This document shows, piece by piece, positions 2,979 through 38,200 of a stretch of 64,000 bases of DNA. Below the pieces are notes generated by a model. It was given only the letters and a program-made list of their open reading frames with translations, was not told the origin of the DNA and searched no databases. A program made the position numbers and the translations under genes. Positions within the stretch are counted from its first letter, which is position 1, and each line of letters opens with the position of its first letter. Source of the stretch: a bacterium (lineage in GTDB: Bacteria > Patescibacteriota > Minisyncoccia > Moranbacterales > UBA1568); the NCBI GenBank assembly GCA_021821305.1, contig JAKACP010000001.1:132934-196933 (forward strand), written 5' to 3'.

Positions 2979-3635
2979 ATGGAATACCATCCGTTCATAC
3001 AGTTCGCCGCGGGAGAAGGCGTGCCGATGCAGACCATCGCGCTTCTGCTCATGCTCCCCCTCGTCGCGACCCTCGTCGCGTTCTTCCGGCAGGTCGTCGG
3101 TATCAAGGCGTTCGGCATCTATACGCCGTCGATCGTCACGTTCGCCTTCGTCGCGTTCGATCCGAAGGGATTCAAGTACGGGATCGGGATCTTCTTGGCG
3201 GTCATATTCGTCGGCATGGTATCACGGTATATCCTCAAGCCGTTCCGGCTGCTCTATCTCCCGCGCGTCGCCATCACGCTCTCGCTCATCTCGTTCGTCA
3301 TGTTCGCCATCCTCATCTTCGGCGGCTATTTCCAGCGCACGGGGCTCGCGGCCGTGTCCATCTTCCCGCTCCTCATCATGATCACGCTCGCCGAAAAATT
3401 CGTCGCGGTCCAGATCGAGAAGGGCAACCGGGTCGCGCTCCTGCTCGCCGGCGAGACGCTCGTCATCTCGCTCGTCGGATACGCGCTCGTCAGCTCGTCC
3501 GCGGTGACCCTCACCATGCTCGTCTATCCGTGGCTCGTGCTCCTCGCCATCCCGGTCAATATCATGCTCGGGAAATGGACGGGCCTGCGCCTCGTCGAGT
3601 ATGTCCGTTTCTACAAGATCCTCAGCAAAAAATGA
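2979..3635 (+). CDS. polytopic (6-7 TM) membrane protein, 7TM_transglut-like, partner of RimK-like ATP-grasp ligase systems
   Basis: 218 aa, 6-7 hydrophobic helices, no soluble domain; stop is 4 nt before the ATP-grasp gene start. Family assignment (7TM domain usually fused to an inactive transglutaminase, PF14402-like) is inferred from context plus topology, not from a search. Confidence 0.55.
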   Translation: MEYHPFIQFAAGEGVPMQTIALLLMLPLVATLVAFFRQVVGIKAFGIYTPSIVTFAFVAFDPKGFKYGIGIFLAVIFVGMVSRYILKPFRLLYLPRVAITLSLISFVMFAILIFGGYFQRTGLAAVSIFPLLIMITLAEKFVAVQIEKGNRVALLLAGETLVISLVGYALVSSSAVTLTMLVYPWLVLLAIPVNIMLGKWTGLRLVEYVRFYKILSKK

Positions 3636-29012: not shown

Positions 29013-29072
29013 CAAGCGAGGGAAAAAACTGGCAATCGCCAGTTTTTTGTTTATAATTGATGAAGCATGATC

Positions 29073-29094
29073 GGACGATTAGCTCAGTTGGTTA
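29073..29094 (+). pseudogene. tRNA-Val-like 5' fragment (acceptor 5' strand plus D-arm up to GGTTA), interrupted in the D-loop
   Basis: GGACGATTAGCTCAGTTGGTTA matches the first 22 nt of the downstream tRNA-Val (GGGCAATTAGCTCAGTTGGTTA-GAGC). The D-stem 3' strand GAGC reappears only after a 63-nt insert; no anticodon or T arm follows. Confidence 0.45.
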
Positions 29095-29157
29095 CCCGCC
29101 CGAACGACCGGGTCCCCGCCAGAATGACTCTGTCGGGCTGGGTCCGGTCGGGCGGGG
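29095..29157 (+). repeat. GC-rich palindromic element (CCCGCCCGAACG...CGGGCGGGG) inserted in the tRNA-like D-loop
   Basis: CCCGCCCGAACGACCGGGTCC ... GGGTCCGGTCGGGCGGGG: imperfect long inverted repeat. Shares the CCCGCCCGAACG/CGGGCGGG core with the elements at 37983..38018 and 38145..38180. Confidence 0.5.
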
Positions 29158-29191
29158 AGCATCTCATTTTCCCGCCATACAGTGAAACTTT

Positions 29192-29265
29192 GGGCAATTA
29201 GCTCAGTTGGTTAGAGCGCCTCGTTTACACCGAGGAAGTCGGAGGTTCGAGTCCTCCATTGCCCA
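29192..29265 (+). tRNA. tRNA-Val(TAC)
   Basis: Acceptor GGGCAAT/ATTGCCC; anticodon stem CCTCG/CGAGG with loop TTTACAC; T-arm GGAGGTTCGAGTCCTCC. Confidence 0.85.
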
Positions 29266-29449
29266 CAGGCGAAAAGAATGACTCAAAATAAATGCACATC
29301 ATGCGGAGAGTTCTGGAGCAGGCACCATTGATTTTTTCCGCTGATACGATACAATAGCTCCTGTATCAGCAAGAGCCTGTTGAGAAAGTCTCTTTCGTCG
29401 CAATTCCCGGATTGCAGCAGAATACGGACTTTTTCAACAGACTCTCAGA

Positions 29450-34752: not shown

Positions 34753-34884
34753 TGATTTGACTACCCGAAGTGTTATCTATGGTATATCGAATCGTTTCTT
34801 CCGTCAATTTTGTTTTACAGAGTGTGGGCCGCTTTTATGATTAAAATATATTAAACAATAAATAATATAAAATGTCAAGTATAT

Positions 34885-35540
34885 TGTTCCACGTGGAACA
34901 TTACACTCTTGTCTTTACGATTGCCAGTTACTCAGATTCAATTTGATATTGTTCCACGTGGAACAATTCTATCGCGACTTTTCTTTGAAGATGTATAAAA
35001 GAAGGACGTGCAAATGTTCCACGTGGAACAAATGTTTTTATATGCGTTGAGTTAAAATGTTCCACGTGGAACATTCTTATGAACATCCATAGATCAGTTC
35101 GGCTCATTCTTAATTGTTCCACGTGGAACAATTGGTCGATATTTTTTTGTGCCTTAAATAAAGAAATTGGTTAATTGTTCGCTTCAAGATAAAGATCATC
35201 GGCATAATGTTCCACGTGGAACAAATATTCAAATAAAAGAAATCGACTCCCAATACCTTAAATTGTTCCACGTGGAACAATTTATTCCTACTCTCTCATC
35301 CATATTAAATTCAAAAACACAAAATGTTCCACGTGGAACATTTTTGTAATATTAAAAACCAGGATATGTTCCACGTGGAACAATTAAGAGAATTTGTTTA
35401 CAACGTCACCTTTCATATGGATTTTGTTCCACGTGGAACAAAATCAGGGAATTCTTAAATCCCTAGAGATCTGCATGTCCGTCACAATGTTCCACGTGGA
35501 ACATTGTTGCTCCTGGGCGCCTTATGTTCCACGTGGAACA
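34885..35540. repeat. array of 12 perfect 16-bp palindromes TGTTCCACGTGGAACA (symmetric parS-like sites) in an AT-rich intergenic region
   Basis: Exact copies start at 34885, 34950, 35015, 35058, 35115, 35208, 35264, 35325, 35367, 35425, 35488, 35525; spacing 37-93 bp. Several extend to 20-26-bp palindromes (e.g. TAAATTGTTCCACGTGGAACAATTTA at 35259..35284). A degenerate half-site lies at 35171..35180. Differs from B. subtilis parS TGTTCCACGTGAAACA by one base. Confidence 0.9.
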
Positions 35541-35555
35541 ATCTTGATAGATATA

Positions 35556-37894: not shown

Positions 37895-37982
37895 GGGGCG
37901 GTGGACAGCGGCAATCGAAACGAAAACAGCACAGGCTGAGGCCTGGGCTGTTTTTCTTCTTCGGTGGGTGATACTGGATTCC

Positions 37983-38018
37983 CCGCCCGTACCGAACGGT
38001 ACGTTCGGGCGGGGAACC
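37983..38018. repeat. GC-rich palindromic repeat, direct copy flanking tRNA-Val(GAC)
   Basis: CCCCGCCCGTACCGAACGGTACGTTCGGGCGGGGAACC: outer stem CCCGCCCG/CGGGCGGG, inner perfect palindrome GTACCGAACGGTAC. Near-identical direct copy at 38145..38180. Confidence 0.6.
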
Positions 38019-38042
38019 AGTGACTTTTTCCCGTATGCTTTG

Positions 38043-38116
38043 TGGGCGACACAAGATTCGAACTTGTGACCTCCACAATGTCAATGTGGCGCTCTAACCA
38101 ACTGAGCTAGTCGCCC
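38043..38116 (-). tRNA. tRNA-Val(GAC)
   Basis: Minus strand: acceptor GGGCGAC/GTCGCCC; anticodon stem CCACA/TGTGG with loop TTGACAT; T-arm ACAAGTTCGAATCTTGT. Confidence 0.85.
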
Positions 38117-38144
38117 ACAAAGCATGGGATCAATGTTGTGAGGC

Positions 38145-38180
38145 TCCCCGCTCGTACCGAACGGTACGTTCGGGCGGGTA
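38145..38180. repeat. GC-rich palindromic repeat, second direct copy; on the minus strand it is inserted in the D-loop of a tRNA 5' fragment
   Basis: CCCCGCTCGTACCGAACGGTACGTTCGGGCGGGTAACC; two substitutions relative to 37983..38018. Confidence 0.6.
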
Positions 38181-38200
38181 ACCAGCTGAGCTAATCACCC
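38179..38200 (-). pseudogene. tRNA-Val-like 5' fragment, minus strand (GGGTGATTAGCTCAGCTGGTTA)
   Basis: Matches the first 22 nt of tRNA-Val(GAC) (GGGCGACTAGCTCAGTTGGTTA) with 3 substitutions. Followed on the minus strand by the GC palindrome, then GAGC, then ~29 nt to the intact tRNA. Same layout as 29073..29265. Confidence 0.45.

Follow-up and report, generated by a model that had tools for sequence, protein, structure and literature searches.

The window examined here is a 64-kb stretch (64,000 nucleotides) of a Moranbacterales contig, and this report concerns a tRNA-Val(GAC) locus on its minus strand (37965..38200), in which an intact tRNA gene lies inside the remains of another tRNA gene. 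ARAGORN and Rfam both recognised the intact gene, which the initial annotation had already called at its correct position, and they detected no other tRNA between 38200 and 37965. Two near-identical direct repeats, also noted earlier, bracket the gene. We define their 32-nt cores as P1 (CCCGCCCGAACGTACCGTTCGGTACGAGCGGG) and P2 (CCCGCCCGAACGTACCGTTCGGTACGGGCGGG), both read on the minus strand; they lie in direct orientation with 133 nt between them, and 31 of their 32 positions agree. Upstream, a tRNA-like 5' fragment (GGGTGATTAGCTCAGCTGGTTA-[P1]-GAGC) is present as described. The corresponding 3' half, however, had been overlooked: the repeats do bracket the inner tRNA, but they interrupt the D-loop and the T-loop of an outer gene.

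Read along the minus strand, 38200..37965 is a single outer tRNA-Val gene with three interruptions, namely P1 in the D-loop, a tRNA cassette, and P2 in the T-loop. The cassette, with the intact tRNA-Val(GAC), occupies the place of the outer gene's anticodon arm. The layout begins with GGGTGAT TA GCTC AGCTGGTTA, P1 (32 nt), GAGC C TCACA ACATTGA and TCCC-ATGCTTTGT, and continues through the tRNA-Val(GAC) (74 nt) to ACAAAGCAT-AC-GGGA, AAAAGTC ACTGG TTC, P2 (32 nt) and finally GAAT CCAGT ATCACCC A. Around all three interruptions the outer acceptor stem (7/7), D-stem and T-stem pair perfectly. Because P2 lies inside a T-loop and the ATCACCC-A behind it forms all 7/7 pairs with the 5' GGGTGAT, we conclude that the repeats interrupt one outer tRNA gene.

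The products of the neighbouring genes are a 340-amino-acid (aa) secreted protein, a membrane protein of 291 aa, FtsH and TilS; the synteny is kept in relatives. FtsH, TilS and the 340-aa protein, with the names given to their homologues, assign the window to Candidatus Moranbacteria/Moraniibacteriota within Patescibacteria. The orthologous site lies between the 340-aa gene and the 291-aa gene/FtsH/TilS. Inspection of this site for an empty state, as proposed in the initial annotation, proved decisive. In L248 and L251 (neighbouring-protein identity 70% and 59%), the site holds a single intact tRNA-Val(GAC), identical in both. This gene has no differences from the window's outer gene at positions 1-22 and one difference at positions 57-74, whereas it differs from the inner gene at 12 of 74 positions. 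L247 (77%) carries another intact allele. L249/L250 (87%) contain the window's inner gene, identical and with the same flanks, together with the remnant AAAAGTCAC; both the hairpins and the outer ends are missing there. The site is occupied, in the same synteny, in the Moranbacteria genome L257 (GCA_026396275.1; flanking proteins 35% identical, E 2e-69, and 28%, E 5e-9). Here a 5' relic is followed by hairpin CCCGCCCGAACGTACCGTCGTTCGGTACGGGCGGG, which is nearly identical to that of the window, an 86-aa GIY-YIG open reading frame (ORF), a functional tRNA-Val(GAC) and another relic carrying this L257 hairpin; the outermost gene's 3' relic and a terminator close the series. The ORF runs into the tRNA-Val(GAC), whose acceptor GGGCGAC is that of the window's inner gene.

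Among these genomes, the site is thus empty (L248, L251, L247), occupied with the ORF (L257), ORF-less (the window) or decayed (L249/L250), and this is the life cycle expected of a selfish nuclease element. It follows from the series that the outer halves represent the former resident gene and that the inner gene arrived later. We conclude that the resident tRNA-Val(GAC) gene was invaded and that a foreign copy has taken over its function. As seen in the comparison with L248/L251, the tRNA lying between the repeats is this incoming replacement and not a target of integration.

Table 1. Features of the tRNA-Val(GAC) locus and of a second locus, tRNA-Val(TAC), with positions in the window.
Feature	Position	Strand	Remarks
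Outer tRNA-Val, 5' part (positions 1-21)	38179..38200	minus	0/22 differences from intact tRNA-Val(GAC) of L248/L251
Outer 5' acceptor strand	part of 38179..38200	minus	pairs 7/7 with 37971..37965
Hairpin P1, 32 nt, in D-loop between positions 21 and 22 (GGTTA/GAGC)	38147..38178	minus	single-stranded DNA (ssDNA) fold -11.5 kcal/mol
Remnant of outer D-stem 3' strand and anticodon region, degenerate	38130..38146	minus	compared with ancestral GAGC G TCACA TTGACAT TGTGA (L248/L251)
Cassette left flank	38117..38129	minus	ATGCTTTGT pairs with ACAAAGCAT across inner tRNA; flank also in L249/L250
Inner functional tRNA-Val(GAC), acceptor GGGCGAC/GTCGCCC	38043..38116	minus	ARAGORN; Rfam tRNA 72.1 bits
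Cassette right flank (CAAAGCAT AC GGGA)	38029..38042	minus	
Outer variable region and T-stem 5' strand to T-loop position 56	38014..38028	minus	1 difference from ancestral AGGTC ACTGG TTC
Hairpin P2, 32 nt, in T-loop between positions 56 and 57 (TTC/GAAT)	37982..38013	minus	ssDNA fold -12 kcal/mol
Outer positions 57-73 and discriminator base	37965..37981	minus	1/17 differences from L248/L251 gene
Terminator-like stem and T-run, 3' of outer half	37922..37945	minus	closes transcription unit
5' relic of earlier tRNA-Val(TAC) (GGACGAT TA GCTC AGTTGGTTA)	29073..29094	plus	
GC-clamp hairpin, 62 nt, at D-loop position 21/22 as at P1	29095..29156	plus	fold -21.7 kcal/mol
Remnant GAGC A TCTCA TTTT... 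and spacer	29157..29191	plus	resembles GAGC A TCTCG TTTACAC of relatives' intact Val(TAC)
Current functional tRNA-Val(TAC), acceptor GGGCAAT	29192..29266	plus	ARAGORN, Rfam

Inverted-repeat flanks similar to those of the cassette surround the inner tRNAs of L019, L027, L042, L051, L103 and L112. Rfam, searched with gathering and permissive thresholds, returned tRNAs only at the locus, and no ribozyme core or known intron RNA family. A sigma-70 promoter scan upstream of the outer gene gave no match (the sigma-70 consensus is uninformative for the Candidate Phyla Radiation, CPR). Downstream, the 340-aa gene on the plus strand and the tRNA unit on the minus strand have a terminator-like two-way hairpin in common (37922-37955). 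No polymorphism was seen at the tRNA-Val(GAC) locus among seven near-identical contigs of the species. One contig, L004, departs from the other strains inside the tRNA-Val T-arm (3430-3591) and is probably a chimeric assembly. L005, L006 and L007 end inside the tRNA or a hairpin; the hairpin repeats break short-read assemblies.

Each of the two hairpins has a 7-bp GC clamp around interleaved repeats of the form A-B-A'-B' (GAAC GTACC GTTC GGTAC), which could form a pseudoknot. The inner part, GTACCGAACGGTAC, is not the perfect palindrome it had been taken for; it is a stem of 5 bp closed by a loop of 4 nt, with a complementary bulge of 4 nt beside the GC clamp. No matches to TAGCTCAGYTGGTTA are expected in shuffled sequence, and its presence is not due to chance. 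The window contains only three hairpin sites, all of them at tRNA relics. We also scanned an unbiased metagenome sample for the hairpin core, anchored on one hairpin variant, and found the identical core, letter for letter, in at least 120 unrelated contigs (130 listed instances). In-silico removal of the hairpin restored a complete tRNA in none of these 130 instances; among them, bare hairpins never interrupt an otherwise intact tRNA. T-loop insertions like P2 were found in L148, L228, L234 and L103. Hairpins were not enriched at the apex of larger inverted repeats (15% vs 10%); single cases of hairpins so placed do occur. Among the viral contigs of IMG/VR, the exact hairpin had no matches and the D-loop junction three, and phage carriage is not supported.

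Some of the metagenome contexts recur. In contigs L159, L211 and L221, the exact hairpin occurs three to five times per contig within a 1.1-1.8 kb repeat unit, always between ...GGATGCTT and CGTYGAGTAACGCTTACT.... Contigs L132, L175, L210 and L243 (also L191 and L226), which come from different samples, share the non-tRNA context GTAAACTACGTAACCTAAAGGATGCGGCTA[hairpin]TACAAATCGCTCAATTTAGATTGAAGG, where the hairpin may interrupt another conserved element. In L131, L137, L164 and L192, the hairpin is preceded by CGTCATTCCGAGGGAGGCACGACTGAGG, whose start is similar to the conserved 5' portion of the NTS that is described for Ssn in Neisseria (CGTCATTCC...).

The initial annotation had proposed looking for a recombinase to match the repeats. 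What adjoins such hairpins elsewhere is a single-domain GIY-YIG nuclease of ~80 aa. The small ORFs beside hairpins (77-106 aa) comprise the GIY-YIG domain alone (Pfam PF01541, E about 1e-13), and among solved structures the UPF0213 proteins 1ywl (E 1e-5) and 1zg2 come closest to them. The distance between ORF and GC-clamp hairpin is at most 150 nt in 33 of 39 cases and usually 10-50 nt. Starting from the promoter side, the usual layout is a tRNA 5' fragment with hairpin, the ORF from its ATG, and an intact tRNA; the mirror image of this layout, in which a T-loop bears the hairpin, is also found on the 3' side. In several loci (L025, L036, L154, L168, L257, L262 and others), the ORF has no stop codon of its own and reads into the downstream tRNA, terminating on the TAG of tRNA positions 8-10 (TAGCTCAG) or on that of GGTTAGAGC. 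A protein search returned 187 homologues with 65-78% identity across CPR classes. When homologues were picked by protein similarity and long contigs alone, all four had a relic with hairpin, the ORF and a tRNA, with the hairpin at position 21/22 in L257 and L258, at 7/8 in L262 and at 9/10 in L266.

To survey genomes, we scanned one genome per species for the D-arm sequence followed by seven G/C and obtained at least 118 loci. A CCCGCC...GGCGGG insert at exactly 21/22 is present in at least 86 of the genome loci. Among the listed loci with enough downstream sequence, 60 of 63 have an intact tRNA on the same strand within 900 nt downstream (Val 29, Met 10, Ile 9, His 7, Asp 4, Asn 1), and the acceptor of this tRNA is the same as that of the fragment in 41 and different in 19. 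Most relics in the listed loci are 5' fragments only; tandem relic units occur at eight loci, and a GIY-YIG ORF within 250 nt at 11. The listed loci span many CPR classes, cultured Flavobacteriaceae (Gelidibacter, Arenibacter, Mesonia, Salinimicrobium and Spongiivirga), other Bacteroidota and some metagenome-assembled genomes labelled Proteobacteria. Many loci are nested, up to three levels. A whole tRNA lies within the loop of a hairpin stem in L027-L029 and L109, and a cassette in the anticodon loop, with both outer halves kept, is found in L019, L042, L051, L075, L103 and L112. Of these, L103 has the exact architecture of the window (inner tRNA and both hairpins) plus a GIY-YIG ORF. The insertion points observed were 7/8, 9/10, 13/14, 21/22, the anticodon loop and 56/57.

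A long array, at 1250-2300 of L258, is made up of no fewer than six 5' relic units tagged with hairpins. They derive from two different tRNA genes (GGACTCA Val and GCGTCTG); a GIY-YIG ORF lies among them, and one functional tRNA-Val(GAC) is found downstream. Shorter tandem relic arrays occur in L046, L021, L063, L110 and L017. In L016 (JBBCKG010000004.1, ~7250, minus strand), a public contig of a metagenome-assembled genome, an Illumina adapter, AGATCGGAAGAGCACACGTCTGAACTCCAGTCAC, directly follows a tRNA fragment and is an assembly artefact.

A second locus in the window, tRNA-Val(TAC) on the plus strand (29073..29266), had been described as having the same architecture at 29073..29157. Its 5' fragment (29073..29160) is indeed a look-alike: the two loci are 92% identical over a 37-nt stretch that begins 4 nt upstream of the fragments and takes in the initial 12 nt of the insert; but this locus has no 3' half. 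The ancestral Val(TAC) acceptor is GGACGAT/ATCGTCC, and the window retains the 5' relic of this gene. In L252, a 3' relic (...ATCGTCC A) with a T-loop hairpin lies behind a different functional allele (acceptor GCGCGCT), and L253 has a third allele at the same site (acceptor GCACGCT). In L051 (Moraniibacteriota), GGACGAT belongs to the inner functional gene inside an older outer gene. Locus 2 is a case of serial replacement of Val(TAC) within the same clade.

Close to this locus, a GC-rich insert of ~170 nt directly follows tRNA-Leu(GAG) in L001 (19900-20255; same species), L252 (1932-2197) and L253 (108-340). It comes with a duplicated tRNA 3' end (GAATCCTCTCCTGGGCACAA) and is missing from the window at 29013/29014; as L001 belongs to the same species, this is a within-species presence/absence polymorphism. 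Rfam assigned the insert to no family, with only a weak group-II-D1D4-4 match (17.7 bits, E 0.19), and a similar long insert lies ahead of the 3' relic in L009. Elsewhere in the window (34869-35543), at least 12 copies of a 16-bp palindrome, TGTTCCACGTGGAACA, are spaced irregularly at 37-150 nt in the intergenic region between a tRNA-Ala (minus strand) and a 355-aa TSP3-like ORF. There is no turn of the GC skew at 34.9-35.5 kb that would mark a replication origin, and the array may be a candidate regulator-binding array.

We consider it likely that a small selfish GIY-YIG/hairpin element once invaded the resident gene and that the tRNA-Val(GAC) locus is a fossil of this event. This reading builds on the anatomy of the locus, its ancestral state, the occupancy by GIY-YIG ORF and hairpin in a relative, the decay in a sister lineage and the linkage of hairpin, GIY-YIG gene and tRNA, all of which were observed directly. 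The element family would consist of a gene for an ~80-aa single-domain GIY-YIG nuclease, a GC-clamped hairpin of ~32 nt and a working tRNA copy, either carried in or regenerated. Its members would enter tRNA genes at cloverleaf positions that are single-stranded and leave a functional tRNA beside hairpin-tagged pieces of the displaced gene. In the window, the ancestral gene would have been reduced to two dead halves (positions 1-21 plus remnant, and 44-76), with the foreign tRNA-Val(GAC) between them now presumably doing the work, and the nuclease gene would since have been lost by deletion. Transcription probably runs through the entire unit, starting at the old promoter and ending at the old terminator, and the normal tRNA-processing enzymes may then excise the inner tRNA. 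As to the chemistry of mobility, we infer that the nuclease drives the spread, either in a homing-like manner or via ssDNA during replication or transformation. By analogy with the Ssn nucleases and their NTS hairpins discussed below, the hairpin would be the recognition site of the nuclease; its earlier interpretation as a site of protein recognition is plausible. The idea of a tRNA-associated mobile module stands in so far as the locus is the footprint of one, but the module is not of the integrase/att type.

Several points weigh against this reading. No GIY-YIG ORF is present anywhere in the 64 kb of the window, and we know of no chemistry by which a hydrolytic GIY-YIG nuclease yields such junctions. 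The interior remnants (22-38 and 44-56) could be resident-derived or element-borne, and the three interruptions may stem from one event or from three. Relative to the GIY-YIG ORF, hairpins of both orientations occur. Both wide scans were anchored on one D-arm sequence or one hairpin variant and gave lower bounds, so that the proportions and the list of tRNA types are biased and the frequencies only indicative. About 25 of the 130 listed metagenome instances sit in recognisable tRNA fragments; for the other ~100, the surroundings are intergenic DNA, short tandem repeats or unknown contexts that recur. Since the hairpin is mostly found outside tRNA, it may move or persist independently of the nuclease gene. 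The wide search for the repeat, suggested at the outset, was decisive as well. It showed the hairpin as such to be a common dispersed repeat, which the initial annotation had named, if unrelated to tRNAs, as a refuting outcome; the link with tRNA genes is strong nonetheless. Finally, direct repeats of at least 6 nt surround 12.4% of the hairpin instances (3.1% of controls), yet none was found at the D- and T-loop sites of tRNAs.

A sequence of independent events would account for part of these observations. Ordinary transfer or recombination would have replaced the gene, REP/MITE-like palindromes would later have landed in the dead halves and been tolerated there, and the GIY-YIG genes would simply be frequent neighbours. 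The spread of the exact 32-mer through at least 120 metagenome contigs, mostly outside tRNA fragments, agrees with such a history, as do the two hairpin orientations, the flanking direct repeats, a weak flank signature (T at -2 in 58% and A at +2 in 59% of hairpin contexts) and the absence of hairpins from otherwise intact tRNAs. However, the spacing of hairpin and ORF, together with the four of four cases picked without regard to hairpins, is far too tight for coincidence. Moreover, the same cloverleaf positions are hit repeatedly, P1 and P2 are nearly identical and symmetric about the cassette, and L257 carries the same hairpin type and the ORF at the same site. We therefore regard independent events as unlikely.

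The hairpins might instead serve the host, either as sites at which a domesticated Ssn-like nuclease limits recombination of incoming DNA at tRNA genes or as processing or insulating structures. In Neisseria, Ssn with NTS hairpins around genes lowers their replacement by transformation (PMC11893778), and in the window, too, hairpins flank a functional gene. Such a role is highly doubtful, as the arrangement is absent in L247, L248 and L251 and lost in L249, the 64-kb window has no nuclease gene, and the clade shows frequent replacement of tRNAs rather than their protection.

It is very improbable that the locus acts at the RNA level, with a functional outer gene whose hairpins and inner tRNA form a new kind of intervening sequence, so that the locus yields two tRNAs. 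The perfectly intact outer acceptor, D- and T-stems would fit, as would the outer genes of L028 and L029, which are perfect tRNA-Val once the inserts are removed, and the predicted fold of the whole transcript, in which P1 can pair with P2 and the inner tRNA is enclosed in a long helix (minimum free energy -126.9 kcal/mol, z -9.7). Against this, the anticodon arm of the outer gene is destroyed and cannot be turned back into that of a tRNA-Val by any join, hairpin removal restored none of the 130 listed cases, the sister lineage L249 lacks the outer parts, Rfam detected no ribozyme or intron family, and most relics are 5' fragments only. The outer gene was rejected as a functional intron-containing tRNA because its anticodon arm cannot be rebuilt.

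An integrative module with att repeats of a tyrosine or serine recombinase is barely credible: direct repeats bracket a tRNA gene, and tRNA genes are classic integration targets at which partial tRNA copies are left (PMC9897764), but the repeats are copies of a foreign palindrome and not duplicated target sequence, belong to no tRNA sequence and recur in non-tRNA contexts and in at least 120 unrelated contigs, neither the 133 nt between them nor the adjoining DNA holds a recombinase, the adjacent genes are conserved housekeeping ones whose synteny is shared by relatives, and the ancestral state of the orthologous site identifies the tRNA between them as the newcomer.

Colonisation of tRNA genes by tiny GIY-YIG genes without death of the host is apparently widespread and undescribed; in a literature search, we found no description of nested or hairpin-interrupted bacterial tRNA genes or of tRNA-associated GIY-YIG elements. 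The chances seem to us about even that these loci represent an undescribed class of selfish elements, in which Ssn-like GIY-YIG genes with a ~32-nt GC hairpin invade tRNA genes of Patescibacteria, Bacteroidota and other phyla and escape counter-selection via a working tRNA, leading to serial horizontal tRNA replacement, nested 'Russian-doll' tRNAs and tandem relic arrays. This would imply that tRNA genes are repeatedly replaced by horizontal transfer in the streamlined genomes of the CPR. The phenomenon bears on tRNA-based phylogeny, on annotation, where relics are mis-called or break assemblies, and on gene flow in organisms thought to rely on DNA uptake.

Several known systems share some of these traits. 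REP/RAYT sequences, MITEs, Rickettsia palindromic elements and the GC clusters of yeast mitochondria are short, dispersed, GC-rich imperfect palindromes, which occur in either orientation and sometimes in RNA genes. The hairpin described here is likewise short and GC-rich, dispersed across metagenomes and found in either orientation, but its 32-mer is letter-identical across very different organisms and is tied to tRNA cloverleaf positions and to a GIY-YIG gene. No HUH or DDE transposase turned up beside the hairpin, although the loci were not searched systematically. In archaeal multi-intron and split tRNAs, as at our locus, the D-, anticodon and T-loops are the places interrupted, and the inserts have helices beside them; in contrast to them, the tRNA here is of the bacterial type, there is no bulge-helix-bulge motif, and removal of the inserts restores no tRNA in the window. 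In tRNA genes of Patescibacteria, group I introns occupy the anticodon loop (position 35/36) and are missed by annotation tools (PMC13011429). Those introns splice themselves out and restore the tRNA, whereas our locus has no ribozyme, and its interrupted gene is dead and encloses a second, complete tRNA. Islands and prophages inserted by integrases also target tRNA genes and leave one complete and one partial tRNA copy (PMC9897764). Unlike them, the present elements measure 0.1-0.4 kb, encode no recombinase and carry a foreign hairpin on the fragments. The insertions lie in D-, anticodon and T-loops and not at a 3'-end att core, and 5' and 3' fragments can both flank the functional gene.

In their logic, the present elements resemble homing-endonuclease elements that carry part of their target gene, with a putative cleavage of the empty allele. 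As in those elements, the gene that harbours the selfish nuclease gene is conserved and essential, the host survives because it receives a functional copy of the part that was interrupted, the displaced fragment stays as a pseudogene, and occupied, empty and decayed states of one site occur among relatives. Function is kept here as well, judging by the intact tRNA downstream in 60 of 63 listed loci and by the score of the window's inner tRNA. The element in the mitochondrial atp6 gene of Allomyces is an example of a free-standing GIY-YIG homing endonuclease element that brings a copy of part of its target gene. Another is SegB of phage T4, in the tRNA cluster (PMC2330249). In contrast to these systems, the genes invaded here are tRNA genes of bacterial chromosomes, the nuclease lacks a separate DNA-binding domain, displaced fragments are tagged by a conserved hairpin, and repeated invasions give rise to nested and tandem relics. 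Beside self-splicing introns and inteins, bringing along a spare copy would be a third route by which a selfish nuclease gene can reside in an essential, universal gene.

The closest described system is Ssn with its NTS/SRM hairpins. Ssn proteins are single-domain GIY-YIG ssDNA nucleases of ~80-95 aa that cut beside cognate hairpin repeats (Chenal et al., Nat Commun 2025, PMC11893778). These repeats, 20-50 nt long and also dispersed in the genome, flank the Ssn genes; the hairpin-gene-hairpin arrangement was called IS-like by the authors, and gene-flanking NTS hairpins influence gene exchange by transformation (PMC11893778). The related loci studied here, although not the window itself, likewise encode a single-domain GIY-YIG protein (77-106 aa), and its gene lies beside a dispersed GC-clamp hairpin (within 150 nt in 33 of 39 cases and in all four of the unbiased homologues). 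Unlike Ssn repeats, none of the 39 GIY-YIG loci matched the SRM consensus HGTCWY..YYVSBRH..WNVSBRG..RNCYNB in a regular-expression scan, and P1/P2 with their flanks did not match it on either strand. A further difference is that the GIY-YIG genes lie inside tRNA genes, overlap the 5' end of a tRNA and are accompanied by displaced fragments and replacement tRNAs; the Ssn study mentions neither tRNA genes nor Patescibacteria, and it does not describe targeting or replacement of tRNAs (PMC11893778). With the loci reported here, the newly described Ssn-type ssDNA nucleases would gain a concrete natural target context, the tRNA genes, and a new conserved candidate hairpin partner, with potential use for ssDNA tools.

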